A DNA stretch of 24,457 bases from IMG/VR virus record IMGVR_UViG_2534681674_000009; one strand, given 5' to 3'. Positions 1-17,297 of this stretch are shown here, piece after piece. The position numbers were made by a program, and so were the translations under genes. The notes under the pieces are model-generated. The model did not search any database. It was not told where the DNA came from and saw nothing but the letters and a program-made list of their open reading frames with translations. The DNA is from a virus. Taxonomy: Duplodnaviria > Heunggongvirae > Uroviricota > Caudoviricetes. Position 1 is the stretch's first letter. Every line of letters begins with the position of its first letter.

Positions 1-1943
<1,943 letters not shown>

Positions 1944-1963
<20 letters not shown>

Positions 1964-3263
1964 TCTCCCGCATATTGCCAGCATGGCTTTTAATGAGCCG
2001 CTGATGCTTGAACCCGCCTATGCGCGGGTTTTCTTTTGTGCGCTTGCAGGCCAGCTTGGGATCAGCCGCCTGACGGATGCAGTATCCGGCGACAGCCTGA
2101 CTGCCGGAGAGGCACCCGCGGCGCTGGCGTTATCCGGTGATGATGACGGACCACGACAGGCCCGGAGTTATCAGGTCATGAACGGCATCGCCGTGCTGCC
2201 GGTGTCCGGTACGCTGGTCAGCCGGACGCGGGCGCTGCAGCCGTATTCGGGGATGACCGGTTACAACGGCATTATCGCCCGTCTGCAACAGGCTGCCAGC
2301 GACCCGATGGTGGACGGCATTCTGCTCGATATGGACACACCGGGCGGAATGGTGGCGGGAGCATTTGACTGTGCTGACATCATCGCCCGTGTGCGTGACA
2401 TAAAACCGGTATGGGCGCTGGCCAACGACATGAACTGCAGTGCAGGTCAGCTGCTTGCCAGCGCCGCCTCCCGGCGTCTGGTCACGCAGACCGCCCGGAC
2501 AGGCTCCATCGGCGTCATGATGGCTCACAGTAATTACGGTGCTGCCCTGGAGAAACAGGGCGTGGAAATCACGCTGATTTACAGCGGCAGCCATAAGGTG
2601 GATGGCAACCCCTACAGCCATCTACCGGGTGATGTCCGGGAAACACTGCAGTCCCGGATGGATGCAACCCGCCGGATGTTTGCGCAGAAGGTGTCGGCAT
2701 ATACCGGCCTGTCCGTGCAGGCTGTGCTGGATACCGAGGCTGCAGTGTACAGCGGTCAGGAGGCCATTGATGCCGGACTGGCTGATGAACTTGTCAACAG
2801 CACCGATGCGATCACCGTTATGCGTGATGCACTGGATGCACGTAAATCCCGTCTCTCAGGAGGGCGAATGACCAAAGAGACTCAATCAACAACTGTTTCA
2901 GCCACTGCTTCGCAGGCTGACGTTACTGGCGTGGTGCCAGCGATGGAGGGCGAAAACGCCAGCGCGGCGCAGCCGGACGTGAACGCGCAGATCACCGCTG
3001 CGGTTGCGGCAGAAAACAGCCGCATTATGGGGATCCTCAACTGTGAGGAGGCTCACGGACGCGAAGAACAGGCCCGCGTGCTGGCAGAAACCCCCGGTAT
3101 GACCGTGGAAACGGCCCGCCGCATTCTGGCCGCAGCACCACAGAGTGCACAGGCGCGCAGTGATACTGCGCTGGATCGTCTGATGCAGGGGGCACCGGCA
3201 CCGCTGGCTGCAGGTAACCCGGCATCTGATGCCGTTAACGATTTGCTGAACACACCAGTGTAA
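1944..3263 (+). CDS. C: Prohead protease / minor capsid protein gpC
   Basis: GTG start at 1944 after RBS GAGGAGGA (1931-1938); 439 aa beginning (V)TAELRNLPHIASMAFNEPLMLEPAYAR, as in lambda C; overlaps the end of B in another frame. Confidence 0.93.
2658..3263 (+). CDS. Nu3: Scaffolding protein Nu3 (in-frame internal start within C, shared stop)
   Basis: In-frame ATG at 2658 (MDATRRMFAQKVSAYTGLSVQ...) sharing the C stop, giving the 201-aa nested product known from lambda; start inferred by homology, not by a strong RBS. Confidence 0.65.
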   Translation: MDATRRMFAQKVSAYTGLSVQAVLDTEAAVYSGQEAIDAGLADELVNSTDAITVMRDALDARKSRLSGGRMTKETQSTTVSATASQADVTGVVPAMEGENASAAQPDVNAQITAAVAAENSRIMGILNCEEAHGREEQARVLAETPGMTVETARRILAAAPQSAQARSDTALDRLMQGAPAPLAAGNPASDAVNDLLNTPV

Positions 3264-3272
3264 GGGATGTTT

Positions 3273-3605
3273 ATGACGAGCAAAGAAACCTTTACCCATT
3301 ACCAGCCGCTGGGCAACAGTGACCCGGCTCATACCGCAACCGCGCCCGGCGGATTGAGTGCGAAAGCGTCTGCAATGACCCCGCTGATGCTGGACACCGC
3401 CACCCGTAAGCTGGTTGCGTGGGATGGCACCACCGACGGTGCTGCCGTTGGCATTCTTGCGGTTGCTGCTGACCAGACCAGCACCACGCTGACGTTCTAC
3501 AAGTCCGGCACGTTCCGTTATGAGGATGTGCTCTGGCCGGAGGCTGCCAGCGACGAGACGAAAAAACGGACCGCGTTTGCCGGAACGGCAATCAGCATCG
3601 TTTAA
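3273..3605 (+). CDS. D: Head decoration protein gpD
   Basis: [27 protein letters not shown]...[10 protein letters not shown], near-identical to recalled lambda D (110 aa); ATG at 3273 chosen over 3267 by RBS spacing and lambda N-terminus. Confidence 0.95.
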
Positions 3606-3623
3606 CCTGACCCTTCATCACTA

Positions 3624-3648
3624 GAGGCCGCCTGTGCGGTCTTTTTTT
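3624..3648 (+). terminator. Putative rho-independent terminator between D and E
   Basis: Stem GGCCGC / GCGGTC (one G.U pair) with CTGT loop, followed by a T7 run (3642-3648). Confidence 0.45.
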
Positions 3649-3661
3649 ACGGGATTTTTTT

Positions 3662-3937
3662 ATGTCGATGTACACAACCGCCCAGCTGCTGGCGGCAAAT
3701 GAGCAGAAATTTAAGTTTGATCCGCTGTTTCTGCGTCTCTTTTTCCGTGAGAGCTATCCCTTCACCACGGAGAAAGTCTATCTCTCACAAATTCCGGGAC
3801 TGGTAAACATGGCGCTGTACGTTTCGCCGATTGTTTCCGGTGAGGTTATCCGTTCCCGTGGCGGCTCCACCTCTGAATTTACGCCGGGATATGTCAAGCC
3901 GAAGCACTTAGCATGGCTTTCTGAGGCTTTCGTGTAG
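3662..3937 (+). pseudogene. E: Major capsid protein gpE, N-terminal fragment (interrupted after codon ~82 by the integrated element)
   Basis: MSMYTTAQLLAANEQKFKFDPLFLRLFFRESYPFTTEKVYLSQIPGLVNMALYVSPIVSGEVIRSRGGSTSEFTPGYVKPKH matches lambda E residues 1-82; after 3906 the frame reads 9 unrelated codons (LAWLSEAFV) and stops. Confidence 0.9.
3897..3906 (+). repeat. Left junction direct repeat (putative attL core) AGCCGAAGCA
   Basis: Identical 10-mer recurs at 16507-16516; phage-derived sequence ends here on the left and resumes there on the right. Confidence 0.65.
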
Positions 3938-4035
3938 TTGCTGGTTTTTACACTTAATCTTTTGATAATAAAGAATAAGTTTATCTGGTGCTTTCACTGA
4001 ATTTTCCTCGTTATCTGTGTGTTGCAATCATCTCT

Positions 4036-4055
4036 GTATTGCAGCTTGTATTGCT
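4036..4055 (+). repeat. Tandem GTATTGCAG / GTATTGC motifs (putative integrase arm-type sites, left arm)
   Basis: TGTATTGCAGCTTGTATTGC upstream of int; the same motif recurs in tandem at 16409-16432 near the right junction. Confidence 0.4.
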
Positions 4056-4231
4056 TTTTGGGGCTAAAAATGGCTGGCGAGAACAAACTGAGCGACAAAG
4101 CGCTTAAAGGATATCTGGGGAAACCCAGAGAAAAGCAGATCACCATTGCTGATGGAAAGGGGCTTTCTATTCGTGTGAGTACTAAAGGGTGAACCGCCCC
4201 GGGTTTCCTGGAGAGTATTTTATCTGTGAAC

Positions 4232-5122
4232 TCAGGCTGCCAGATCATTATTTCCGATGGAAGCATAATAAGCTTTTTCTGCTTCTGCCGGAGGAATATG
4301 GCCCAGCCTTTCCAGCAATCGTCGATTGTTATACCAGTCCACCCACGTTAGTGTGGCCAGTTCCACTTCTGTCCGGTTTTTCCAGCTATTACGGTGTATT
4401 ACCTCCGCTTTGTAAAGACCATTGATGCTCTCAGCCATCGCGTTGTCATACGAGTCGCCAGTACTCCCTGTTGATGCCAGTAATCCGGCTTCCTTAAGCC
4501 GCTGCGTGTAGGCCAGCGATACATACTGAGAACCTTTATCACTGTGATGGATTGTGCCGGACGGCCGACGGGCCCACAACGCCTGCTCCAGTGCATCCAG
4601 CACGAATGTTGTTTCCATGGATGATGAGACCTGCCATCCCACGATGTATCCGGCGAACACATCAATGATGAACGCCACATAAACGAAGCCCTGCCATGTG
4701 CTTACCCAGGTAAAATCAGCCACCCACAACTGGTCTGGACGTTCTGCCACGAACTGACGGTTTACGCGGTCGCATGCGGCAACGGCTTTCCGGCTGACGG
4801 TAGTGCGGACCTTTTTACCCCGGAGAACACCGGCAAGTCCCATAACTGCCATGAGACGTGCCACAGTGCATCTGGCCACTCTGATACCTTCCCGTAACAA
4901 CTGACGCCAGACTTTACGCACACCGTATACCTGGTGATTTTCATCGTATACGCGCTGTATCTCTTTCTTCAGCCAGTCATCGTGCTGCGCACGGGCACTG
5001 CGTTTATCCGGATGATGTCGCTGTTGCTGACAATGGTAATACGTTGACGGGGCAATATGCAGTTCGCTGCATACCGGTCCGACCCCGTACTGCTCACGCA
5101 GCTTATCCAGCAGTGGCATCAT
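4232..5122 (-). CDS. IS629-like transposase OrfB (DDE catalytic domain; normally made as OrfAB by frameshifting)
   Basis: [53 protein letters not shown]...[22 protein letters not shown]... matches recalled IS629/IS1203 OrfB. Confidence 0.9.
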
Positions 5123-5446
5123 TTTTCCAGAGGCGGTCGAACTCCGCCTTCGCAAAATAAGCGGAAGCCTGGCGAAGGATATCGTTACTGCGGCGCAGTT
5201 CACGATTTTCACGTTCCAGCTCTTTCAGACGCTGACGTTCAGCGCTGGTGAGCCCACCATCACCGCCCCCGGTATCCCGCTCATGCTGGCGAACCCAGAC
5301 ACGCAGAGTCTCCGGCGTACAGCCAATCTTTGGGGCAATGGAACTACGATTGCCGCCCACTGTGAGTCATATTCATCCTGACTTTCCAGAACCATACGAA
5401 TCGCCCGCTGACGGACTTCGGGGGAAAAACGAGTATTTTTAGTCAT
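5103..5446 (-). pseudogene. IS629-like OrfA, apparently frameshifted
   Basis: N-terminal [33 protein letters not shown] is in one frame (5225-5446) and the remainder [30 protein letters not shown]...[10 protein letters not shown] in another (5103-5360); junction near 5345-5350. Confidence 0.55.
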
Positions 5447-6620
5447 CCTGTTTACCTCTTTCTCAGGGAGTTTAGTCTCCAGGATTTCCGGGGCGGTTCA
5501 GGGGCTGTGAGCTTTGTTTTCTTCTACAGGTTAGCAGGTGGCCGGGCTGCTCCGGTCTGGCTAACGTTGGGTAAATATCCTGATATGTCACTCAAACAGG
5601 CAAGGGAAAAGCGCGACGAGTGCCGTGGTTGGTTGGCTGACAAACGTGATCCGCGTATCCAGATTAAGATTCAGGCTGAAGAACGCTTAAAGCCGGTTAC
5701 AGTGGAGGATGCACTAAATTACTGGTATGAAAATTACTGTAAGGTGCGTCGTAAAACTCATGCTGTAACGCTTGGCAGATTTCGAAAGCATATCTTTCCC
5801 TATATCGGTCATTTGCCCGTAAATGACACTCACCTATATGAATGGCTGGACTGTTTTGACCGAATTAAACGTAATGCACCAGTTATGGCGGCGTATGTTT
5901 TTTCTGACACTAAATTAGCTCTTCGTTTTTGTCGGGTACGCCAGTACGCGACGTGTGATGCTTTAAAGGATTTGCGCATGAGTGATGTGGGGCAGATTGC
6001 AGGTAAGCGGGATCGGGTTCTGGATGAAGCCGAACTCGGCCAGCTCTGGAAGGCAATTTTTGTCGAGCCTGATTTAAAACTAATGTCTGAATACACGCGA
6101 AAAATGTTTGTGCTTTGTACAGTATTTGGATGTCGAATGAGTGAAGCCCGATTATCAGAATGGAGCGAATGGAATCTCGAAAGTTGGGTTTGGACTGTAC
6201 CAAAAGATCACTCAAAAACTGGTGTTGAAATCGTCAGACCAGTACCTGAAATTCTACGACAGTGGGTAACGGATGTTCACGAAGAGACAAAACATACTGG
6301 TTATGTGCTGGGAAGTCTGCGAATTAGAGAAAGCGTAAGCAAGATTGGGGGGAAAATCGGTAAACGTTTGGGCCATGAAAAACAATGGTCACTACACGAC
6401 CTTAGAAGAACGCTATCTACTCATCTAAGTGATCTCGGTGTTGAATTTTATGTAGTAGAACAACTGTTAGGCCATGCGCTACCTGGCGTGGCAGGTGTTT
6501 ACAACCGGAGTAAGTTTATGGCTAAAAAACTGGATGCTCTGGAACTCTGGACTACATATCTCAATAGCATCGCAGGTGCTGATTCAAAAGTGACAATCCT
6601 CAAACAAAAGGTTGGTTAAC

Positions 6621-6848
6621 ATGAAAAAAATGGCAATTGTTGATAAAAAGGGTCTGGAGTACATTCCTAACATTGACCGAATGATCCGTGAGAAAGAATG
6701 TCGGGAGCTAACCACTCTTGCGAACAGCACACGCTGGAAGCTGGAGAAGGAAGGAAAATTTCCTAAGCGGATCAAGATTGGTTCCACTGCTGTTGCATAT
6801 CGTCTTTCAGAAGTGCAGGCATGGATTCGAGGTGAGTGGGTAGTTTAA
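6621..6848 (+). CDS. alpA: AlpA-like DNA-binding protein (putative excision/regulatory factor)
   Basis: Small basic ORF directly downstream of int with an HTH-like segment ECRELTTLANSTRWKLEKEGKFPKRIKIGSTAVAYRLSEVQAWI, typical of AlpA/Xis-like proteins next to P4-type integrases; ATG 6621 preferred over TTG 6612. Confidence 0.75.
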   Translation: MKKMAIVDKKGLEYIPNIDRMIREKECRELTTLANSTRWKLEKEGKFPKRIKIGSTAVAYRLSEVQAWIRGEWVV

Positions 6849-6874
6849 ATTATCTCAGAATAAAATATTATGAA

Positions 6875-6908
6875 TTACTGATTTGAGAATTTGTACTCAA
6901 ATCAGTAA
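6875..6908. terminator. Bidirectional hairpin between convergent genes
   Basis: Perfect 13-bp inverted repeat TTACTGATTTGAG ... CTCAAATCAGTAA with 8-nt loop, in an AT-rich spacer between the alpA-like (+) and membrane protein (-) genes. Confidence 0.55.
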
Positions 6909-6917
6909 TAACATTCT

Positions 6918-7454
6918 TTATAAGAGATTAAATCCAAATAAAGAGTAATCATATACCGGGGTGCATTGCATCCCACTGAATATGCTGATGTTTTTTTCTG
7001 TTTCTATCCTTTTTTCAATAAGTTGTTGTATATTTTTACAGTACAATTTGTGTGTGATGTTATTATCGTAAGCCTGATATAGCAACGTCAATGTTGATGC
7101 TATGAAACATGCAGAAAGAAAATGAACTAGTACATGTGAGCGTTTTTTGGTTGTCCATGATGCATTCGCTTGTGAAATATAAATCATTCTGAGAATGATA
7201 ATGATGATAGACAGTAACAGACCACTCAATAAAATAAGTATTGGGTTTGCGTATTTAATTAATGGTTGAGAGCAAAAAACTATTATAGCTCCTGTGACTG
7301 CGTATGAGAAAAAGGAGTAATTAAACTTCTTACTCCTTCTCTCAAGTATTTTAATTTCATCTTGTGTGGGGGTTTTAGATGCCTCTAATATAAGTTTATT
7401 AAATGTTTCTGTTATCTTGTTTTTTGTGTTTGTGGCTATTTTTTTTAGATTCAT
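6918..7454 (-). CDS. Hypothetical membrane protein (AT-rich accessory gene)
   Basis: 178-aa ORF with hydrophobic segments (YSFFSYAVTGAIIVFCSQPL, ILILLSGLLLSIIIIILRMIYI, VLVHFLSACFIASTLTLLY); base composition much more AT-rich than neighbours; no recognisable family. Confidence 0.55.
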   Translation of the reverse strand: MNLKKIATNTKNKITETFNKLILEASKTPTQDEIKILERRSKKFNYSFFSYAVTGAIIVFCSQPLIKYANPILILLSGLLLSIIIIILRMIYISQANASWTTKKRSHVLVHFLSACFIASTLTLLYQAYDNNITHKLYCKNIQQLIEKRIETEKNISIFSGMQCTPVYDYSLFGFNLL

Positions 7455-7804
7455 AGCATTCTAACTCCCTTAACTTATTTATTACTTTCTCTTTATGATA
7501 AGAGAGGGGAATGACTTGGTAAAGTGATTTGTCATTAATAATGATAATCCTTGCGATAAATATTTCTGCAAGTTATTTACCTGTTTGTTGCTATCTTGTT
7601 AAGCGTTGGGTGTGGTTTATGTTTGGAGCGACTTTATTTAATCGTGATTTTATGGATTTATATTTATATCCTGTAAGATAAGCGCATGTTAGTTCAGGAG
7701 TAGTGTCAGATAAAATTATTCGGAGTAGAACTACCTTTTCTGTTTATTGCCAGTATTTACATAGCAATGCGCCGTAGTTACTCACATCACGGCGCTGATA
7801 CTAA

Positions 7805-8110
7805 TTATTCAGATTCTTTGGCTTTACGCCGCTGGAGTTCTTCACGAGCGACGGCTACGAGTTGCCCGATTTCCTCCGCTGCCTTGATGCCGATTTGTTC
7901 GACCTTAGCTAAGGCATCCAGTGAAGACACGAGGGGATTTTCTCCGCTTCCTTCTGCCTGGCGGCGGGCGATTTCACCGCGCATGGCGGTTACGATAAAT
8001 CCGGCATTGCTTTCACCGTCCAGCTTAACGGATTCCATCCCTTGCATAACATCTAGTGGGACTCTGACAGTTGTCAGTTGTGATTTTGCGTTTTTGTTAG
8101 CCGTTGCCAT
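7805..8110 (-). CDS. Hypothetical protein, possible regulator (divergent from downstream operon)
   Basis: 101-aa ORF; sits head-to-head with the 8301+ operon across an intergenic region containing repeated operator-like half-sites. Confidence 0.5.
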   Translation of the reverse strand: MATANKNAKSQLTTVRVPLDVMQGMESVKLDGESNAGFIVTAMRGEIARRQAEGSGENPLVSSLDALAKVEQIGIKAAEEIGQLVAVAREELQRRKAKESE

Positions 8111-8300
8111 TTCTGAAACTCCTAATCATCGGTGTGTTTCAGTATACACAAAAAAAGAAATACAAAAAGCCTTGACGTGTGTTTCATGCGCTCATAACAT
8201 GAAACACACCGAAAGGATTGTTGAAATACAAAGAGCAACGCCCCGCAGTGCTGGGAACACATACGGGGCGTCTAACCAACAACGTAAACTAGGAGCCGTT
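8111..8300. promoter_or_regulatory. Divergent promoter/operator region
   Basis: TTGACG (8172-8177) then 17 bp then TAACAT (8195-8200); three copies of GTGTTTCA half-site (8133-8140 and 8179-8186 direct, 8200-8207 inverted), the latter two forming a palindrome over the -10; also inverted repeat GACGCCCCG...CGGGGCGTC at 8239-8273. Confidence 0.45.
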
Positions 8301-8498
8301 ATGGTTGCTGTAAATCATATACCACACCTTGTACACACACAAACGGCCTTTGTGTGGCGTTTTCTGGCACTGAGTGCCGGAGAATCTCAAATCATCCACG
8401 TAACCGCCTGGACGGAACGCGAAGCGCGTAGCCGTTGCCCGTCCGGTTGTGTTGCTGTATTCGCTGCAAAAATCCGCCAGGGAGTGAGTCATGCTTAA
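8301..8498 (+). CDS. Small hypothetical protein (possibly Icd-like)
   Basis: ATG at 8301 preceded by AGGAG (8291-8295); 65 aa MVAVNHIPHLVHTQTAFVWRFLALSAGESQIIHVTAWTEREARSRCPSGCVAVFAAKIRQGVSHA; family assignment is a weak recollection only. Confidence 0.45.
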   Translation: MVAVNHIPHLVHTQTAFVWRFLALSAGESQIIHVTAWTEREARSRCPSGCVAVFAAKIRQGVSHA

Positions 8499-8676
8499 AA
8501 CCTTCCGTGTATTTGCCCGAGCTGTTAACCCAATAGGCCACACAATTGGTATCGCTCAGAATGTGAAGGCTGTTAATGTTCAGACGGCTATTGCTGCGGT
8601 GAGAAGCGAATCATCAGAATATGGCTTATCACAAGTCATTATTTCAGCAGTGTATGAATTAAAAGAGGTGCATTAA
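8491..8676 (+). CDS. Small hypothetical protein
   Basis: 61-aa ORF whose start overlaps the preceding stop (translational coupling). Confidence 0.4.
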   Translation: MLKTFRVFARAVNPIGHTIGIAQNVKAVNVQTAIAAVRSESSEYGLSQVIISAVYELKEVH

Positions 8677-8834
8677 TGCAGGAAATCACATTACACGAAG
8701 CCGCTGAACGTGCGCACCAGACAGAAATTATTGCCGCCTTCTTGAGGTATACCCGAACAAAATTACAGATGCTGATATATCCGCACTGGCGAGCCTACTG
8801 GCGCGTCTTTCGGGAAGTGTCGCTAGTTTTTTGA
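8676..8834 (+). CDS. Small hypothetical protein (52 aa)
   Basis: ATG at 8676 overlapping the previous stop (TAATG), preceded by a strong RBS AGAGGTG (8664-8670); below the ORF-track length cutoff. Confidence 0.4.
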   Translation: MQEITLHEAAERAHQTEIIAAFLRYTRTKLQMLIYPHWRAYWRVFREVSLVF

Positions 8835-8866
8835 TTGAGGAAGAAAGTAAGCTGGTGGGGGATTAA

Positions 8867-9088
8867 ATGAATACAGAACGGGAAGTCTTTTTTAAATTGT
8901 TAGCATGTGCAGAAAGTTCATTAACTTTAAATAATTCAGCAAAAGCAATATTAAATATGTGGCTTGATTGCATAAATGACAATGAAGATGCAAATATTGC
9001 TTATGGCCTGTTGTCACTTATTGATGAAGCAGCAGAAAAACTCAATGACGCAATAAATAGTGCCCTGCTATCAAATAAGTCGAGTTAA
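8867..9088 (+). CDS. Small hypothetical protein (AT-rich)
   Basis: 73-aa ORF with GGGGGA RBS upstream; no recognisable family. Confidence 0.4.
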   Translation: MNTEREVFFKLLACAESSLTLNNSAKAILNMWLDCINDNEDANIAYGLLSLIDEAAEKLNDAINSALLSNKSS

Positions 9089-9105
9089 GTCGAGGAATAA
9101 ATAAT

Positions 9106-9405
9106 ATGGAAATGAAAAATTCTGGCTTTATTGCCAGCGGCCCCGCTCGGCCTGAATTTATGAACGGCGATATTTACCGCGATAAATACGGCGGCACGGT
9201 AACGATTAAAGGCGTGGCAGAACGGCGCATCACTTACCGTCGTGAGGGGTATAGCTATGACTGCGTGATGCCTGTTTATCAGTTCCGGCGTGATTTTTCC
9301 CTGGTATATGCCGCACCCCGCAGTAAGCCCATCAGCAGGGAAAAAGCGCGGGGAAACATCCAGAAAATGAAAAGCATGATTAACGCATTCAGGGGCAAAA
9401 AATGA
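9106..9405 (+). CDS. Hypothetical protein upstream of primase
   Basis: 99-aa ORF with GAGGA RBS; stop overlaps the primase start (ATGA). Confidence 0.5.
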   Translation: MEMKNSGFIASGPARPEFMNGDIYRDKYGGTVTIKGVAERRITYRREGYSYDCVMPVYQFRRDFSLVYAAPRSKPISREKARGNIQKMKSMINAFRGKK

Positions 9406-11153
9406 AACTGGCACCGAACTTAAAAAAACAGCCACGCGACAGACTGACAGAGATAATCATCTTTGCAGGTAGTGATGCGTGGAGCCATGCGAAAGAGTGG
9501 CAGGAATGGGCGGGTAAACATATTGCCGCCGACGATGTGCCGCCTGTCGTGTTGGCTGATGAGCAACTGAAAAACATCACCGATTACCGGATCATTGATG
9601 AAGATCGTCAGTGTGTGCGTGTTTACCGCGCAGGACATATCACAGAGCACAGCATGACGCAGATTGTTACGTTACTGGCTGTGGCTGGAGTGAAGACCGT
9701 ACACGAATACGCGGGGATTACTGACACCAGCCCAGTGGATTTATCCGACCAGTTGCCGCGACTCAAAGAGGAATGCGAGCGTGGGGAAAGCCTGGTGCTT
9801 AATCTTCCGACGAAGCAAAAGGCGCAACTTTCACAGATGGCAGACAGTGAGCGCGCGCAGCTGCTTGCCGAGCGCTTTGATGGCGTTTGTGTGCATCCGG
9901 AAAGTGAAATCGTTCACGTATGGCGCGGCGGGGTATGGTGTCCGATCAGCACAATGGAGCTGAGCCGCGAAATGGTGGCGATCTATTCAGAGCACAGGGC
10001 CACTTTCAGCAAACGCGTGATCAATAACGCCGTTGAAGCGTTAAAAGTTATTGCCGAACCAATGGGCGAGCCGTCCGGCGATTTGCTGCCGTTCGCCAAT
10101 GGTGCGCTTGACCTGAAAACGGGGGAATTTTCCCCGCACACGCCGGAGAACTGGATCACCACGCACAACGGCATTGAGTACACGCCACCAGCACCAGGGG
10201 AGAACATCCGCGATAACGCGCCAAACTTTCATAAATGGCTTGAGCACGCAGCCGGAAAAGACCCGCGCAAGATGATGCGTATATGTGCCGCGCTGTACAT
10301 GATTATGGCGAACCGGTACGACTGGCAGATGTTCATTGAGGCCACCGGAGACGGGGGAAGCGGTAAGAGTACATTTACCCATATTGCCACCCTGCTTGCT
10401 GGCAAACAGAACACCGTAAGCGCAGAGATGACATCACTCGATGATGCAGGAGGGCGTGCGCAGGTTGTCGGGAGTCGTCTTATCGTCCTTGCCGATCAGC
10501 CGAAATATACGGGGGAAGGCACGGGCATCAAGAAAATCACGGGAGGCGATCCCGTTGAAATTAACCCGAAATATGAGAAGCGATTCACGACGATAATAAG
10601 GGCGGTGGTACTGGCAACCAATAACGACCCGATGATCTTTACCGAACGGGCCGGAGGTGTGTCACGCCGTCGGGTGATTTTCCGGTTCGACAACATTGTA
10701 AGGGAGGACGAAAAAGACAAGGAATTACCGGAAAAGATAGCGGCAGAAATCCCCGTAATTATCCGCCGCTTGCTGGCTAATTTTGCTGACCCTGAAAAGG
10801 CACGGGCTTTATTACTGGAACAGCGTGACGGTGATGAAGCTCTGGCAATAAAGCAGCAAACGGATCCGGTTGTTGAGCTTTGCGCGGCGCTGGAGTTTCT
10901 GGAGGAAGCTCGTGGGCTAATGATGGGCGGTGGTGGTGACACCGTGAAGTACACGACCAGAAACAGCCTTTACCGTGTCTATATGGCCTTCATGGCATAT
11001 ACAGGAAAGGGGAAATGTTTGAGCGTGAATGAGTTCGGAAAGGCTATGAGGTCAGCGGCGAAAGTTTACGGATATGAATATATTACGCGAAAAGTTAAGG
11101 GAGTCACGCAGACCAACGCAACGACTACTGATGATTGCGATGCGTTTTTATAA
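9402..11153 (+). CDS. Primase-helicase, D5 / P4-alpha C-terminal-like (SF3 NTPase)
   Basis: 583-aa ORF with Walker A GDGGSGKST and Walker B-like hydrophobic run ending in D (RLIVLADQ); architecture resembles satellite/P4 replication initiators; immediately followed by iterons. Confidence 0.8.
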   Translation: MKLAPNLKKQPRDRLTEIIIFAGSDAWSHAKEWQEWAGKHIAADDVPPVVLADEQLKNITDYRIIDEDRQCVRVYRAGHITEHSMTQIVTLLAVAGVKTVHEYAGITDTSPVDLSDQLPRLKEECERGESLVLNLPTKQKAQLSQMADSERAQLLAERFDGVCVHPESEIVHVWRGGVWCPISTMELSREMVAIYSEHRATFSKRVINNAVEALKVIAEPMGEPSGDLLPFANGALDLKTGEFSPHTPENWITTHNGIEYTPPAPGENIRDNAPNFHKWLEHAAGKDPRKMMRICAALYMIMANRYDWQMFIEATGDGGSGKSTFTHIATLLAGKQNTVSAEMTSLDDAGGRAQVVGSRLIVLADQPKYTGEGTGIKKITGGDPVEINPKYEKRFTTIIRAVVLATNNDPMIFTERAGGVSRRRVIFRFDNIVREDEKDKELPEKIAAEIPVIIRRLLANFADPEKARALLLEQRDGDEALAIKQQTDPVVELCAALEFLEEARGLMMGGGGDTVKYTTRNSLYRVYMAFMAYTGKGKCLSVNEFGKAMRSAAKVYGYEYITRKVKGVTQTNATTTDDCDAFL

Positions 11154-11164
11154 AAAATGGCAAT

Positions 11165-11400
11165 GGTTATCTACCTTGTCTACCTGACTGAAATAAAATA
11201 CTTTTATTTCAATGTATTAATGCAGGTAGATAACTATTTTTCACTGTCTACCTGTTATCTACCTTATCTACCCATTTTTGTAGACAGGTAAGGAGACGGG
11301 TAGAGATGAGGTAGACAGCTATTTGGGGCTGTCTACCTCCCTGAAACCCGCGCCATTACTGGCCTGATAACTAATCAGGTAGACAAGGTAGACAAGGTGG
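11165..11400. repeat. Iteron cluster (putative origin of replication)
   Basis: At least ten copies of (T/G)TCTACC / GGTAGAC in both orientations (e.g. 11168-11185, 11247-11273, 11280-11318, 11331-11337, 11377-11397) around an AT-rich block (11190-11222), directly downstream of the primase gene. Confidence 0.7.
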
Positions 11401-11442
11401 TGGTGCACAAAAAACTTTTTAAACGAGGGGGTAAAAATAAAA

Positions 11443-11685
11443 ATGCACACATCAGGAAAACTGAACAAACATATAAAGCCACATTACCGCGCCCTTGATA
11501 TGGCTGAACACTGGCTAAGGGTGGCGATTAAGGCAATAGACCGCAACGCCGGGGAAGGATACGCGAAAGCACATCCCGAACTGATAAGCGCATTCATGAC
11601 AACGGCGGCTGCAAACTTTGCCACGCTGACCGAACGGGAGATTGCCGAAGCGGAGGAAGTGACAACCATCAATATTAAGTCCTGA
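11443..11685 (+). CDS. Hypothetical protein
   Basis: 80-aa ORF with GAGGGGG RBS upstream. Confidence 0.45.
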   Translation: MHTSGKLNKHIKPHYRALDMAEHWLRVAIKAIDRNAGEGYAKAHPELISAFMTTAAANFATLTEREIAEAEEVTTINIKS

Positions 11686-12365: not shown

Positions 12366-13406
12366 ATGGTTGATTTATATTCGCCTACCCAGCTTGTACA
12401 GGTGGTTAATGCTGTAGATGTACAAAAACAACTAAATGCGTTGTTTACCAGTTTGTTTTTTACTCGCTCGGTAATGTTTGAATCGCGCGATATTATTCTT
12501 GATACAATCGACGATCCAAATATCCCAATTGCAGCGTTTTGTTCTCCTATGGTGGGTAGTAAAGTTTCACGTGACGAAGGGTACGAATCAAAAACAATTC
12601 GTCCAGGCTATATGAAGCCGAAAAGCAGCATTGATCCAAATAAGTTAGCTGTGCGCCCTGCTGGTGTATCACCTGAGCAATACAATGCTTTTGGAGCGCG
12701 TAATATTAAAGTTAAACAGGCGATTGTAAATCAGGCTAAAGCTATTCGTGCACGTATTGAATGGCTTGCCGTTCAGGCAATCACAACGGGGAAAAATATC
12801 ATTGAGGGCGATGGTATTGAACGTTATGAGCTGGACTGGAATATTAAACCACAAAATATCATCACTCAGTCTGGCGGTGCTGAGTGGTCAGGTAAGGATA
12901 AAGAAACTTTTGATCCAAATGATGATATTGAGAGCTACGCAGAATTTAGTGAGGGCGTCACTAATATCATCATTATGGGCGGTAATGTATGGAAGAAATA
13001 CCGTTCATTCAGAGCGATAAAAGAGGCTCTGGATACCCGTCGTGGTTCTAATTCCGAACTGGAAACGGCCCTTAAAGACCTTGGTGATTCGGTGAGTTTT
13101 AAAGGGTATATGGGCGATGTTGCGATTGTTGTATACAGCGGGCGTTATACCGACGAGGACGGAACTGAAAAACATTTCCTTGATCCTGATTTGATGGTGC
13201 TTGGCAATACGGCTCTTCAGGGGATTGTCGCCTATGGCGGTATTCAGGATCCGGAGCTAATCCGAATGGGGCTGACTAAAGCCGAACTTGCACCGAAAAA
13301 CTATATTGTGCCTGGTGATCCGGCTATTGAATATGTGCAGACACATTCAGCACCACAGCCAATACCGGCCCGCATCAATCGTTTTGTTACCGTTCGCATT
13401 GGCTAA
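12366..13406 (+). CDS. Major capsid protein, lambda gpE homologue encoded by the element
   Basis: Start at ATG 12366 (RBS AAGAGG 12354-12359). Product aligns along its length with lambda E, e.g. ITQSGGAEWSGKDKETFDPNDDIESYA...RRGSNSELETALKDLGDSVSFKGYMGDVAIVVYSG vs lambda ITQSGGTEWSKRDKSTYDPTDDIEAYA...RRGSNSELETAVKDLGKAVSYKGMYGDVAIVVYSG; clearly a diverged paralogue, not a duplicate. Confidence 0.85.
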   Translation: MVDLYSPTQLVQVVNAVDVQKQLNALFTSLFFTRSVMFESRDIILDTIDDPNIPIAAFCSPMVGSKVSRDEGYESKTIRPGYMKPKSSIDPNKLAVRPAGVSPEQYNAFGARNIKVKQAIVNQAKAIRARIEWLAVQAITTGKNIIEGDGIERYELDWNIKPQNIITQSGGAEWSGKDKETFDPNDDIESYAEFSEGVTNIIIMGGNVWKKYRSFRAIKEALDTRRGSNSELETALKDLGDSVSFKGYMGDVAIVVYSGRYTDEDGTEKHFLDPDLMVLGNTALQGIVAYGGIQDPELIRMGLTKAELAPKNYIVPGDPAIEYVQTHSAPQPIPARINRFVTVRIG

Positions 13407-13415
13407 GGGGGAGCA

Positions 13416-13757
13416 ATGGCTACTCATTACACTGAACTCATGTCTGGCACTGAAGCACTGGTTACTACGCTGGGGATATTTTCAGCCAATAAAGGGGTAA
13501 TACCTGCGTTTACGCCACTGATGCAGGAAGATGCAACTGGTGCGCTAGTGGTATGGGATGGAACGAGCGCAGGCAAAGCGGTTTATGTTTCCGCTGTACA
13601 AATCGACACAGCGAAAAAAACACAGGCACAGGTTTATAAGACAGGTGTTTTAAATGTTGATGCTCTGAACTGGCCTGAGTCTGTAAGAGAACTGTCGGCA
13701 AAGGTTGCCGCGTTTGTTGGCTCAGGTATTTCTGTTCAGCCGCTGGCTCGTGTGTAA
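13416..13757 (+). CDS. Head decoration protein, lambda gpD homologue encoded by the element
   Basis: 113 aa; ...LVVWDGTSAGKAVYVSAVQ...YKTGVLNVDALNWPE...AAFVGSGISV parallels lambda D ...[19 protein letters not shown]...[15 protein letters not shown]...[11 protein letters not shown]; RBS AAGGGGGA. Confidence 0.8.
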   Translation: MATHYTELMSGTEALVTTLGIFSANKGVIPAFTPLMQEDATGALVVWDGTSAGKAVYVSAVQIDTAKKTQAQVYKTGVLNVDALNWPESVRELSAKVAAFVGSGISVQPLARV

Positions 13758-13768
13758 AGGGGGATACA

Positions 13769-14152
13769 ATGCAGAATGATTACAATGACCTTAAGCCAAT
13801 TGCCGAAATGATGTACCCGAATCCAGCTGTAGAGGAATTAAAAGCTATCGCTGACAAAATGTGTTTAAGCGAGCGCCTTGTTGATATGAATCAGGTGATG
13901 GAAATTACAACCCTGAGTCGGCGTACACTGCTAAACCTTGAGGCTAGTGGAGAGTTCCCGGAGCGTGTGCAGGTTACGGAAGGGCGTAAGGCCTGGTATT
14001 TAAGTGAAGTGATCGACTGGATAAATAATATTCCTCGCGCTTCTGAATATTGCCGCGTACCTGTCCCAAAAAAGCCAGATGCGGCGCTATGCCTCAAGAT
14101 TGAGCGTGTACGCCGCAATGCACGGGATGGTCGCTATAAGCTGATTGGTTGA
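13769..14152 (+). CDS. Second AlpA-like HTH protein
   Basis: 127 aa; segment MNQVMEITTLSRRTLLNLEASGEFPERVQVTEGRKAWYLSEVIDWINN resembles AlpA/MerR-type HTH; RBS AAGGGGGA. Confidence 0.6.
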   Translation: MQNDYNDLKPIAEMMYPNPAVEELKAIADKMCLSERLVDMNQVMEITTLSRRTLLNLEASGEFPERVQVTEGRKAWYLSEVIDWINNIPRASEYCRVPVPKKPDAALCLKIERVRRNARDGRYKLIG

Positions 14153-14194
14153 TGAAATTAGGGCCCGCTCTGGCTGGCGGGTCCTTTCCGGCGA

Positions 14195-14340
14195 TCTGAC
14201 AGGCTACGGGGCGTCAGGCGCGCGGGTTTTCTCTATTTATGAGCATTTTAAGGGGACTGGTGGTGGTTTTGTTGTTCGCTATATCTGTATGAATAATAAG
14301 AGAAAAATACAATCAATACACCAACCTGAAACAGTAATTA
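14195..14340 (+). other. cos site (cosN plus cosB-like region) of the element
   Basis: GACAGGCTACGGGGCGTCAGGCGCGCGGGTTTTCTCTATTTATGAGCATTTT closely parallels recalled lambda cos GACAGGTTACGGGGCGGCGACCTCGCGGGTTTTCGCTATTTATGAAAATTTT; lies directly upstream of a Nu1-like gene as in lambda. Confidence 0.65.
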
Positions 14341-14353
14341 AGTTGTGGTATCA

Positions 14354-14896
14354 ATGAAATTACACCTGATGAACAAAAAAAACATGGCAAAAAGTTGCCG
14401 TGTAAGCGCCACTGCGTTCGATAAGTGGGGAGTGATTCCCGTCGAGCGTAAGGGCCGTGAGGCGTTCTATGATGTTGCCAGTGTAATAGATAATCGGGTT
14501 AACAATGCAATCAGCCAGATTACAAACGAAACGGGCGATATTGATGACGATGAACTTTTACGCGTCAGGATCAGATTACTGACAGCACAGGCAGAGGCGC
14601 AGGAGCTTAAAAACGAGCGCGAACGCGGCGACGTTATTGATACAGAGTTTTGTATGTATGTTCTTTCCAAACTGGCGAGTCAGATTTCATCTATCATGGA
14701 CAGCCTGCCGCTTACCATGCAAAGGCGCTTCCCACAGATGACTCCGGCTATGCTGGATGGACTTAAAAAGGAAGTGGCTAAAGCCTGTAATGCCAGTGCC
14801 GGCGTTGCTGACAACCTCCCACAGATACTGGCTGATTATCTGATGGAAAGTACAGGAAACGTACCGGATAAGTTGCAGCTGAATAAGGATAAGTAA
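14354..14896 (+). CDS. Terminase small subunit, lambda Nu1-like
   Basis: ...RLLTAQAEAQELKNERERGDVIDTEFCMYVLSKLASQISSIMDSLPLTMQRRFP matches lambda Nu1 ...RLTRAQADAQELKNARDSAEVVETAFCTFVLSRIAGEIASILDGLPLSVQRRFP; start codon uncertain (ATG 14354, 14369 or 14384). Confidence 0.8.
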   Translation: MKLHLMNKKNMAKSCRVSATAFDKWGVIPVERKGREAFYDVASVIDNRVNNAISQITNETGDIDDDELLRVRIRLLTAQAEAQELKNERERGDVIDTEFCMYVLSKLASQISSIMDSLPLTMQRRFPQMTPAMLDGLKKEVAKACNASAGVADNLPQILADYLMESTGNVPDKLQLNKDK

Positions 14897-14907
14897 CGTA
14901 GTACGCT

Positions 14908-15183
14908 ATGACTGAATCCGAACTACTGAAAGTAATCTGCTATGCTGGTGGAGTCAGCCACCAGCATGACGAACAGGCCACGCAGCCGGGCAGTGTCACC
15001 GCTGAAAATTACGCTCGTGTGGTTGCTGAGGTTATGTGGCGTGACGGTATAGAACTGAACGGACAGGATTGCTTAGTCATCCGCACCAAAGTGCTGGCTA
15101 TACTGGCAGCTAGGCGGAGGCAGGGACAACGCCAGAACGTTGCATCGTACCAGTGGAAGAAGCCTGACAGACTGCGGCGATAA
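14908..15183 (+). CDS. Hypothetical protein downstream of terS
   Basis: 91-aa ORF; no recognisable family; weak RBS. Confidence 0.35.
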   Translation: MTESELLKVICYAGGVSHQHDEQATQPGSVTAENYARVVAEVMWRDGIELNGQDCLVIRTKVLAILAARRRQGQRQNVASYQWKKPDRLRR

Positions 15184-15337
15184 CTCTTTGATTTTCTCGA
15201 CGGCCCCAAAATGGGCCTTACCATAGCCAGCTAATAAATGAGCAAGCCTCAAAAGTGAGGTTTGTGGCCGTTTGGCCTATTCATATGCTAACTCGTTGAT
15301 ATTCCTGACGACGCAAATTTACGCCTTGTGGCTGGTA

Positions 15338-15585: not shown

Positions 15586-16347
15586 TTATTTCCCATCTTT
15601 AAGGTTTAACCAAGTGTTAATTAAAAAAAGAGCCATTGAGCCTGATAAATTTACTGCAAGTTCGGCATGCCTTGGGGATGGCTTAATTGATGAGCTGTTC
15701 GTTCCATGTGCATCACCGAGTTTATTACGAAGAGTACCTAACCCATTTACAACTGCAGAACAACCGCCGAGAATTTGTTTGAAGATATTTTCAGTATGTT
15801 GGTCGGCAGATAGGTTAAGTTCTTTTGAAAGAGTTTTATAAAGCTCTGACATTTCAATATTTTTATTATTATACTGAATGCCCATATCATCAAGAATGTG
15901 TTTGCAAACTGTTTCAAGAAGTGTTCTTGCGGAGGTTATCGCACCATCCGGATCTGTATGGCGCCGTTCAAGTGCTTTTATCCAAACGGCGTGGACTCCA
16001 TCCTCGTTAAACTTTCTTAATACATCAGATATGTCTTCATCCGCTGGAGCTTTATTTTTCCCTTCTAGATAGTCCAGCATCGGCTGAAATGCCTTATAAA
16101 TCAAATCTCTCCGGGGGGCATACTTTTCAGTCTTTTTTATAAATCCCCAAAATTCTTTTAGTGAGCGATTAGTTCTCACAAACTCTGGTAATAGCTGATG
16201 TAAAGGAGGATTTTGTAAGAAATATGTTCTTAGAAGCAAATAATCATTATTAGCTTCATCCTGGGCTCCTGTAGCTCTTGCAATTAGTATGTTTTGAAGC
16301 GCTACTGCGCGCTCTAGGTCATTTTGAAGGGTATCTATAATATTCAT
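15586..16347 (-). CDS. Abi-like protein with HEPN-type Rx4-6H motif (putative abortive-infection / defence effector)
   Basis: 253-aa ORF on the opposite strand at the element's right end; C-terminal LGTLRNKLGDAHG contains R-x6-H as in HEPN/Abi_C family proteins. Confidence 0.55.
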   Translation of the reverse strand: MNIIDTLQNDLERAVALQNILIARATGAQDEANNDYLLLRTYFLQNPPLHQLLPEFVRTNRSLKEFWGFIKKTEKYAPRRDLIYKAFQPMLDYLEGKNKAPADEDISDVLRKFNEDGVHAVWIKALERRHTDPDGAITSARTLLETVCKHILDDMGIQYNNKNIEMSELYKTLSKELNLSADQHTENIFKQILGGCSAVVNGLGTLRNKLGDAHGTNSSSIKPSPRHAELAVNLSGSMALFLINTWLNLKDGK

Positions 16348-16506: not shown

Positions 16507-16516
16507 AGCCGAAGCA
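16507..16516 (+). repeat. Right junction direct repeat (putative attR core) AGCCGAAGCA
   Basis: Identical to 3897-3906; downstream sequence TGAGGTGAATCCGCAGATGACC continues lambda E. Confidence 0.65.
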
Positions 16517-17297
16517 TGAGGTGAATCCGCAGATGACCCTGCGTCGCCTGCCGGATGAAGATCCGCAGAATCTGGCGGACCCGGCTTACCGCCGCCGTCG
16601 CATCATCATGCAGAACATGCGTGACGAAGAGCTGGCCATTGCCCAGGTCGAAGAGATGCAGGCAGTTTCTGCCGTGCTTAAGGGCAAATACACCATGACC
16701 GGTGAAGCCTTTGATCCGGTTGAGGTGGATATGGGCCGCAGTGCGGCAAACAACATCACACAGTCCGGTGGCACGGAGTGGAGCAAGCGTGACAAGTCCA
16801 CGTATGACCCGACCGACGATATCGAAGCCTACGCGCTGAACGCCAGCGGCGTGGTGAATATCATCGTGTTTGATCCGAAAGGATGGGCGCTGTTCCGTTC
16901 CTTCAAAGCCGTCAGGGATAAGCTGGATACCCGTCGCGGCTCTCATTCCGAGCTGGAGACAGCGGTAAAAGACCTGGGCAAAGCGGTGTCTTATAAGGGA
17001 ATGTATGGCGATGTGGCCATCGTCGTGTATTCCGGACAGTACGTGGAAAACGGCGTCAAAAAGAACTTCCTGCCGGACAACACGATGGTGCTGGGGAACA
17101 CTCAGGCACGCGGTCTGCGTACCTATGGCTGTATTCAGGATGCGGACGCACAGCGCGAAGGCATTAACGCCTCTGCCCGTTACCCGAAAAACTGGGTGAC
17201 TACCGGCGATCCGGCGCGAGAGTTCACCATGATTCAGTCAGCACCGCTGATGCTGCTGGCTGACCCTGATGAGTTCGTGTCCGTACAACTGGCGTAA
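16507..17297 (+). pseudogene. E: Major capsid protein gpE, C-terminal fragment (codons ~80-341)
   Basis: (PKH)EVNPQMTLRRLPDEDPQNLADPAYRRRRIIMQNMRDEELAIAQVEEMQAV...EFTMIQSAPLMLLADPDEFVSVQLA, near-identical to lambda E from residue ~83; no in-frame ATG, upstream in-frame TAG at 16506-16508. Confidence 0.9.

Follow-up and report, generated by a model that had tools for sequence, protein, structure and literature searches.

Satellites of lambda-like phages move virulence and defense genes, and the means by which they gain packaging priority is understood for one route only, that of Rpp. EcCICFT073, an island that carries Rpp, is reported to be packaged as phage-length DNA (PMC10111431). A related group comprises the helper-embedded PICIs (HE-PICIs), among which the site E:Phage_cap_E:80 accounts for 201 instances, with 11capE of Escherichia coli NRG857c as the model element (PMC10111431); 11capE is without terS and has 258 bp in common with the cos of its helper (PMC10111431). 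TerS-bearing PICIs of E. coli, IHE3034 and 18098, were noted in 2018 as showing little or no transfer, and their cos sites were not analyzed (PMC6092414). Phage N15 offers a further point of comparison: lambda TerL works when paired with a chimeric TerS whose DNA-binding domain comes from N15 (PMC4669245).

Here, we analyzed a 24,457-nt stretch of viral DNA (IMG/VR record IMGVR_UViG_2534681674_000009), hereafter the window, which carries an island with its own cos and terS. The reading that we favor, and consider reasonably probable, is that this is a HE-PICI packaging site in which lambda-type cosQ, cosN, and I2 are joined to an N15-type cosB that would be read by the island TerS together with the helper TerL. 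Such a site points to a possible second route within the same island family, i.e., a private cosB plus an island-encoded, full-length TerS of predicted N15 specificity.

An Island Within the Helper Major Capsid Gene

In the window lie the head and tail genes of a lambda-like prophage (portal, protease/scaffold, and D, then FI to L). The helper major capsid gene E (3662-3906 plus 16507-17297) breaks off at 3906, past codon ~82, and continues from 16507, with the island lying between the two parts. Its genes run in the order P4-type integrase, accessory genes, DUF4222, D5-type primase, SSB, E-like capsid, D-like decoration, AlpA-like, cos, Nu1-family gene, 91-aa open reading frame (ORF), and, on the opposite strand, Abi_C. 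The features outside the packaging site are as follows:

3897-3906, plus strand: left att core AGCCGAAGCA, 10 bp, inside helper gene E at the left end of the island
4190-5499, minus strand: IS3-family insertion sequence of 1,310 bp, splitting the integrase near codon 40
12366-13757, plus strand: E-like major capsid gene and D-like decoration gene (the latter at 13416-13757); Pfam Phage_cap_E 2.7e-41, HDPD 4.6e-15
13769-14152, plus strand: AlpA-like regulator/excisionase gene, ending 26 bp before cosQ; Pfam Phage_AlpA 7.6e-09, PHROG 2790 1.1e-49
14908-15183, plus strand: 91-aa ORF, 12 nt after terS; PHROG 1561 (unknown function) 1.1e-45, no Pfam match
15586-16347, minus strand: Abi_C abortive-infection-type accessory gene at the right end of the island; Pfam Abi_C 1.3e-23
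16507-16516, plus strand: right att core, where helper E resumes

The att core occurs in exactly two copies in the window versus 0.04 expected, and joining of the flanks restores the E frame (...GYVKPKH/EVNPQMT..., with the slash at the junction); precise excision of the island would thus restore helper gene E. Without the insertion sequence, the island measures 11.3 kb. It has a P4-type integrase, AlpA, a primase, a size of ~11 kb, co-orientation within the lambda E cognate, and the 10-bp att block, and on these features it is a HE-PICI at the published site E:Phage_cap_E:80. The island/E junction is present in 41 complete E. coli genomes, and Citrobacter/Enterobacter-type contigs hold relatives, with TerS proteins 57-61% identical, at the equivalent place in their own prophages. 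E-embedded PICIs are therefore not uniformly without terS, contrary to what the single model element might suggest.

The island encodes its own E-like and D-like proteins while splitting the E of its helper; the start of the island capsid gene was taken from RefSeq gene lengths in relatives. In EcCICFT073, the homologues of these two genes were reported as dispensable for the interference tested (PMC6092414), and such PICI capsid genes as dispensable for transfer (PMC10111431).

The insertion sequence was delimited by comparison with the island of KMi006, which is free of it: the window aligns to that island at 1-4189 and 5500-6840, with a 4-bp overlap, and an Rfam ALIL frameshift pseudoknot falls within the element at 5048-5163. 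Because the insertion sequence splits the integrase, the copy in the window is probably stranded and immobile, with both the island and helper E locked in the host genome. The accessory/replication zone of the island (6840-11490) is unrelated to that of KMi006 (locus L001, 19525-24179), both flanks being 94-99% identical; the same zone matches 11capE and STEC711 in part, which makes for a mosaic backbone.

The slot between terS and the right att carries Abi_C in the window, HEPN and DUF262 genes in 11capE (L113, 28536-30252), and FRG and DUF3892 genes in a Citrobacter-type island (L007, 6559-7916). From this cargo, the slot looks like a hot spot for defense genes.

Three composites of island and prophage without the insertion sequence (KMi006, STEC711, and NRG857c) include the rest of the helper. 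In all of them, the prophage around the island encodes lambda Nu1 and a TerL of lambda type (641 aa) and has a canonical lambda cos, complete with R3/R2/R1, which lies ~15.3 kb upstream of the island cos.

A Lambda-Type cos in the Island

Between the AlpA-like gene and the Nu1-family gene, positions 14179-14252 align without gaps to the lambda cohesive-end region, the island reading ...CTACG/GGGCGTCAGGCG/CGCGGGTTTTCTCTATTTATGAGCATTTT and lambda ...TTACG/GGGCGGCGACCT/CGCGGGTTTTCGCTATTTATGAAAATTTT. Throughout, cos positions are numbered in bp from the first overhang base (bp 1). The elements of this left part are:

14179-14185, plus strand: cosQ, GGGTCCT, the packaging-termination element, identical to lambda cosQ and 30 bp from overhang base 1, as in lambda
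14209-14220, plus strand: cosN, inferred 12-nt 5' cohesive end GGGCGTCAGGCG, in gap-free register with the lambda and N15 ends
after 14208 (top strand) and after 14220 (bottom strand): inferred cosN nicks, in the same register
14221-14252, plus strand: cosN-cosB spacer (the I2 segment of lambda), CGCGGGTTTTCTCTATTTATGAGCATTTTAAG, with 1 mismatch in 22 to lambda over 14221-14242

A 23-bp segment ending in the letters TACG separates cosQ from the overhang, and cosN keeps the layout TACG/GGGCGTCAGGCG/CGC, with conserved CG flanks, a 12-bp stagger, and the left half GGGCG. I2 is required for termination in lambda (PMC4669245). When 14100-14400 was compared by blastn with 50,697 phage records, the sole matching part was 14177-14249, every match being to cos in lambda-like phages, at 85-90% identity and with E values as low as 4e-19. 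The pattern cosQ-N19-TACGGGGCG-N7-CGC occurs once in the window (14179-14223), as does the spacer string CGCGGGTTTTCGCTATTTATGA with one mismatch allowed (14221-14242), and for both the number expected from shuffles was 0.00. Given the gap-free alignment, phage matches confined to cos, and two patterns absent from shuffles, the observation is real, and the island cos is confirmed, at the level of sequence, as a genuine lambda-type DNA-packaging site.

An earlier note on this DNA had proposed a lambda-like cos directly upstream of a Nu1-like gene within a satellite, and both the gap-free alignment and the Pfam Phage_Nu1 match of that gene bear this out; the similarity to lambda cos on which the proposal turned was reproduced over 14179-14252. 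The strings that it quoted are present in the window. The interval that it assigned to the site, 14195-14340, starts too late, cosQ lying upstream of it at 14179-14185. Likewise, a 12-nt block is found where an overhang at ~14208-14219 had been expected, with its inferred position at 14209-14220.

No second cos, such as is present in EcCICFT073, was found elsewhere in the window with up to 3 mismatches allowed. None of the loci collected, 80 IMG/VR contigs among them, terminates at the island cos, whereas the lambda and N15 records do end at their own cos.

A 9-bp hairpin (AGGGCCCGC...GCGGGTCCT) at 14160-14185 overlaps cosQ, and in IHE3034-type islands (L012, 16943-16968) a GC hairpin with a T run directly precedes cosQ. 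Given these hairpins, transcription from the upstream genes may halt at cos. A promoter and terminator scan of 13700-15300 returned no promoter-like site and a single minus-strand terminator-like match within terS, which is no more than expected by chance.

Overhang Divergence and Cutting by a Lambda-Type TerL

The cosN of the island had been described as near-identical to that of lambda, which does not hold: only 7 of the 12 overhang bases match lambda GGGCGGCGACCT, the differences being at bp 6, 8, 9, 10, and 12. The helper cos lies outside the window, and the comparison with it was made in the composites. There, the helper has the canonical lambda overhang GGGCGGCGACCT, and the island, with GGGCGTCAGGCG, differs from it in cosB and, in KMi006, STEC711, and NRG857c alike, at five overhang bases.

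We then considered conservation in 100 loci with an island-type TerS, anchored on the terS coding sequence and giving 75 distinct cos sequences. Six positions of cosQ are invariant and one is conserved in 74/75; little or no variation is seen at bp 1-5, at bp 11, or in the flanking TACG and CGC, and bp 6-10 and bp 12 vary among islands to give nine overhang variants. In the spacer, bp 23-35 are invariant except for a T at bp 24 in the window's sequence (also in locus L039), and the DNA upstream of cosQ is unalignable across the family. The T at bp 24 was considered as a private decay mutation, and this was ruled out, as 11capE, which is outside the 75-sequence set, carries the same T.

These data bear on whether the cos is a relic, that is, a nonfunctional leftover of captured prophage late-gene DNA. 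PICIs have been proposed to capture helper late-gene clusters (PMC10111431), the integrase of the window's copy is broken, and the base at the otherwise invariant spacer bp 24 is rare. However, the position-specific conservation extends across genera, terS is intact in all 102 copies examined, and the cosB is distinct and itself conserved; moreover, the element that shares the bp-24 T, 11capE, is active in excision and replication (PMC10111431), and the cos at the equivalent position in EcCICFT073 is functional (PMC6092414). We therefore regard a relic as very improbable.

In lambda, changes at bp 7-12 of cosN have little effect and changes in the left half can hurt (PMC4669245). Four of the five island changes (bp 8, 9, 10, and 12) fall within the tolerant bp 7-12, and bp 6 falls within the sensitive half. 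Lambda TerL cuts cosN of N15 as efficiently as its own cosN, and termination needs cosQ, cosN, and I2 and not cosB (PMC4669245). Phage PhiR46_1, whose TerL is identical to that of the KMi006 helper at 639/641 residues (99.7%) and which has a lambda cosB, carries the overhang GGGCGGAAGGCG, the right half of which is similar to that of the island. Since four of five changes lie in tolerant positions and a variant overhang is found with this TerL, it is plausible that the island cosN is cut by the helper TerL. Comparison of the sequences shows the left part of the island site (cosQ, cosN, and I2) to be a lambda-type substrate for a lambda-like large terminase.

The mismatch with the overhang of the resident helper, seen in 3/3 composites, would also fit a different helper, i.e., use of cos and terS with another phage whose TerL suits the C terminus of the island TerS, the resident lambda-like prophage being a landing site only. 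In line with this, that C terminus is unlike lambda's, and islands that occupy ordinary chromosomal sites, with no prophage next to them, have a TerS of the same type. We nevertheless think a different helper improbable: among the sequenced phages searched, no TerS is closer to the island's than that of N15 (47% identity), so that no matching phage type is visible; the integrase clade is specific for late genes of the lambda type, and excision and replication of 11capE follow when its composite is induced (PMC10111431); and such overhang variants are used by lambda-type TerL, as PhiR46_1 illustrates.

A Putative N15-Type cosB

The similarity of the island cos to lambda ends at ~bp 44, beyond which the alignment collapses. 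The lambda R3 string is absent from the island cosB, and the CGTTTCC-type specificity of the lambda R sites is not found there. In this, the earlier note was right that the downstream region differs from lambda. Two conserved blocks were found instead:

14259-14276, plus strand: putative R3-type TerS-binding site of cosB, G/T-rich GGTGGTGGTTTTGTTGTT, bp 51-68
14314-14328, minus strand: second conserved block CAATACACCAACCTG, bp 106-120, a possible inverted R2-like site

Past the spacer, conservation is highest in the first of these blocks (mean column identity of 0.94-0.98 vs 0.75 just before it). The GGTGGTGGTTTTGTTGTT motif is conserved in the 75 distinct island sequences and is found in E. 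coli, Citrobacter/Enterobacter-type, Kosakonia, and Superficieibacter islands. It is similar to the R3 site of N15, GAGGTTGTTGTT, which was experimentally defined at bp 48-59 (PMC4669245). In the second block, mean column identity is 0.96 for bp 111-120, and the reverse complement of TACACCAACC (bp 109-118), GGTTGGTGTA, has 2 mismatches to the N15 R3 core; action of this block as an inverted R2-like site is thus possible. A scan with the N15 R3 core, which recovered both the known R3 and rR2 of N15 as positive controls, gave 3 matches in the island cosB region versus 0.32 in shuffles. No conserved IHF consensus was found between the two blocks; a single 2-mismatch match was seen by eye, at a column that varies among relatives.

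The number of GGT units before TTTTGTTGTT varies (L019, L025, L027, L029, and L030 vs 14259-14267 of the window), and the distance from cosN to the ATG of terS is 140, 143, or 146 bp. Differences of one or two GGT units among relatives shift the downstream motif by 3-6 bp, and in lambda the spacing of the R sites tolerates a shift of only 1-2 bp (PMC4669245). If spacing were as strict as in lambda, shifts of this size would be unexpected. Together with the position of the motif at bp 51-68, compared with bp 48-59 for R3 of N15, and the missing IHF consensus, they count against the explanation that we favor.

The TerS-type cosB starts with GGTGGTGGT (14259-14267), and the Rpp-type cosB of CFT073 (L031) cos1 has ACCACCACC at ~bp 53-64. 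The two amount to one triplet repeat in opposite orientation at a near-equal distance from cosN, and TerS and Rpp are unrelated proteins.

Taken as a whole, the right part of the island site appears to be an N15-type recognition site, unlike lambda's, and binding by the island TerS is predicted.

A Full-Length Small Terminase of the Nu1 Family

The gene that follows cos is the following:

14354-14896, plus strand: island TerS, Nu1 family, 180 aa; Pfam Phage_Nu1 1.1e-24, PHROG 57 "terminase small subunit" 9e-53

Its start, the ATG at 14354, corresponds to bp 146 and lies 133 bp past the right nick. The Pfam PF07471 score is 87 bits against a cut-off of 30, and the PHROG 57 match spans residues 2-174. 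The protein is 35% identical to lambda Nu1 over 178 aa (aligned to Nu1 6-166) and 47% identical to N15 gp1 (aligned to gp1 5-166), and its parts differ in this respect. The DNA-binding domain is 64% identical to that of N15 and 39% to that of lambda Nu1, with the recognition helix AFDKWGV common to the island TerS and N15 gp1; the central domain is ~58-59% identical to Nu1 and ~58% to N15; and over the last 39 residues, which presumably bind TerL, identity is 28% to Nu1 and about 30% to both Nu1 and N15. Across TerS copies, too, the DNA-binding domain is the most conserved (75-98%) and the C terminus the least (26-82%).

A PDB search with an island TerS profile gave as top match the winged helix-turn-helix of lambda TerS 1-98 (6HN7_B), a weak yet specific match of the N terminus at E 0.007, and a single-sequence search of the PDB gave nothing relevant. 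An AlphaFold2 model from a 15-sequence alignment (pLDDT 58.6, pTM 0.29) was too poor for fold comparison.

In both the island and N15, a TerS with AFDKWGV is thus paired with a G/T-rich, GTTGTT-type site ~50-68 bp from cosN. A scan of the genome collection for TerS relatives gave six loci, comprising two islands, two marine loci with a cos-like region upstream, and two without cos upstream; the marine relatives, whose TerS reads (A/G)FDKW(G/N)V, have GGTTGTT-type motifs in the equivalent position after the cos-like region. On these comparisons, the product of the gene is shown to be a Nu1-family TerS of full length whose DNA-binding domain is N15-like. The further suggestion that packaging would be biased toward the island by its own TerS finds its support in comparison, through the N15 R3-type motif, the N15-like helix, and the published genetics of N15 and lambda.

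In the Superficieibacter TerS (L014, 5001-5500), the N-terminal domain is of the island/N15 type, and the C-terminal half closely resembles that of lambda Nu1 (...FCTFVLSRIAGEIASI...NKAAGLDEIIP...). The protein has the look of a naturally arisen chimera, which would fit C termini being matched to the TerL of the local helper.

Identification of the island TerS as an Rpp protein was rejected: Rpp proteins are 139-154 aa, BLASTP against RppA gave E 6.3, and RppA has no Phage_Nu1 match. The protein might still act in the manner of Rpp, entering mixed dimers or oligomers with helper Nu1 and steering them to the island cosB and away from that of lambda, with Nu1 making the contact with TerL. Sister islands have an Rpp acting in this way at the same place after cos (PMC6739421; PMC9026076), the TerS central domain is 59% identical to the oligomerization region of Nu1, and the C terminus, at 28% identity to Nu1, is poorly conserved. 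Yet the island protein is of full length and aligns to the C termini of Nu1 and N15 gp1, including their ..P..L..Y.. pattern, whereas Rpp proteins are without the TerL-binding C-terminal region (PMC9026076); it has no sequence similarity to RppA; and lambda TerL can work directly with a TerS that has the DNA-binding domain of N15 (PMC4669245). On balance, we consider an Rpp-like role unlikely and favor a TerS that would itself recruit the helper TerL.

Exchange at the cosN/cosB Border

Up to 14249 (bp 41), the identity between the window and 11capE is 97.3%, and directly beyond that point the two are unrelated. Past bp ~42, 11capE has a lambda cosB (R3/R2/R1), a 64-aa Nu1 remnant, and the HEPN/DUF262 genes. 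A second comparison, between the TerS-type island L019 and EcCICFT073, both at the phoQ site, gave 94% identity up to bp 42 and no homology over cosB and terS/rpp, the alignment resuming beyond. Because both comparisons lose homology at cos bp ~42, cosB and the gene for its reader are, as judged from these alignments, a swappable cassette, for which three alternatives are found: a copy of the helper cosB without a protein, the Rpp adaptor, and a private N15-type cosB with its own TerS. In IHE3034, whose TerS is 90% identical to that of the window, the cos has the same cosB and a lambda-type overhang.

A second, inverted cosQ-cosN lies just downstream of terS or rpp in L019 (9686-9759) and CFT073 (L031, 12275-12339). 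Chromosomal TerS-type islands and EcCICFT073 thus have a specificity cassette bracketed by inverted cos repeats, and the island in the window is without the second cos.

One might go further and suppose that everything between bp ~42 and the end of the specificity gene is a "packaging key" hot-swapped among the three alternatives by recombination in the invariant cosQ-cosN-I2, and that, in the helper-embedded lineage, divergence of the overhang from that of the helper is adaptive. We put this forward as a tentative and rather doubtful idea. If it were true, unexcised composites cut at the island cos and the helper cos would have mismatched ends (GGGCGTCAGGCG vs GGGCGGCGACCT) and be poorly infectious, and divergence in cosN would be adaptive rather than neutral.

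Discussion

In the mechanism that we favor, induction of the helper would lead to excision of the island from gene E and to its replication. The island TerS would then be bound at GGTGGTGGTTTTGTTGTT, ~50-68 bp to the right of cosN, and would recruit the helper TerL through its Nu1-like central and C-terminal regions. TerL would nick with a 12-nt stagger around 14209-14220, and packaging would proceed rightward to end at the next cosQ-cosN-I2, probably after ~4 island units (4 x 11.3 kb = 45 kb), filling a lambda-sized head. Helper Nu1 alone would be expected to use the island cos poorly, leaving the island with a private packaging signal.

The terminases of lambda and phage 21 package cosB-N15 DNA at ~10^-4, which for lambda terminase is ~10^-4 of the level reached by a TerS with the N15 DNA-binding domain plus lambda TerL (PMC4669245). 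By analogy with this poor use of cosB-N15 against the functional N15-type TerS, the island cosB/TerS pair should give a private initiation signal, from which the helper is not necessarily excluded; lambda DNA, too, is packaged with this N15-type TerS, at roughly half the efficiency (PMC4669245). The weak points of the explanation are the diverged C terminus of TerS, the change at bp 6, the variable GGT units, the broken integrase of the window's copy, the finding that no contig ends at the island cos, and the little or no transfer of IHE3034 and 18098, the only TerS-type E. coli islands for which attempts are published (PMC6092414), all of which count against it.

Two questions could be put to the island as a natural system, namely, how large a part of cosN is really required by a lambda-type TerL and by what means a foreign TerS docks onto that enzyme. 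Its practical value is modest because the general principle has already been established. That principle is known from the pac-type SaPIs, in which a satellite small terminase redirects the helper large terminase to satellite DNA (PMC6739421), as is inferred here from sequence; unlike the present island, SaPIs are packaged by the headful (pac) mode, have a TerS from an unrelated family, and occur in a Gram-positive host.

Among the closer relatives, N15 (Feiss et al. 2015) shares a lambda-like cosQ/cosN/I2, a G/T-rich R3 ~50 bp from cosN, and a TerS DNA-binding domain at 64% identity. In contrast to the island, N15 is autonomous as a phage, encodes a TerL of its own, and has a simple cosB (one R3 and a remote rR2); the island has a longer site with a (GGT)n start, a possible inverted partner at bp 106-120, and a diverged TerS C terminus.

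EcCICFT073 (Fillol-Salom 2018, 2019; Murialdo & Feiss 2022) resembles the island in having int, alpA, DUF4222, primase, SSB, capsid, and decoration genes, cos, and a small DNA-binding protein, and in a lambda-like cosQ/cosN/spacer followed by a cosB unlike lambda's. It differs in that its gene after cos encodes the 144-aa Rpp rather than a 180-aa TerS, its cosB motif is ACACCACCACC rather than GGTGGTGGTTTTGTTGTT, and it has two cos at a chromosomal site, whereas the window has one cos inside a prophage gene. Eco567.11capE (Tommasini, Mageeney & Williams 2023, PMC10111431) shares the gene E site, the 10-bp core, the 97.3% identical backbone, cosQ, the overhang GGGCGTCAGGCG, and the T at bp 24, but has a lambda-type cosB and a Nu1 remnant in place of the N15-type cosB, complete terS, orf91, and Abi_C of the window. 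The TerS-type packaging module is, then, a variant of the known PICI cos/HE-PICI system, one that is uncharacterized in the literature searched.
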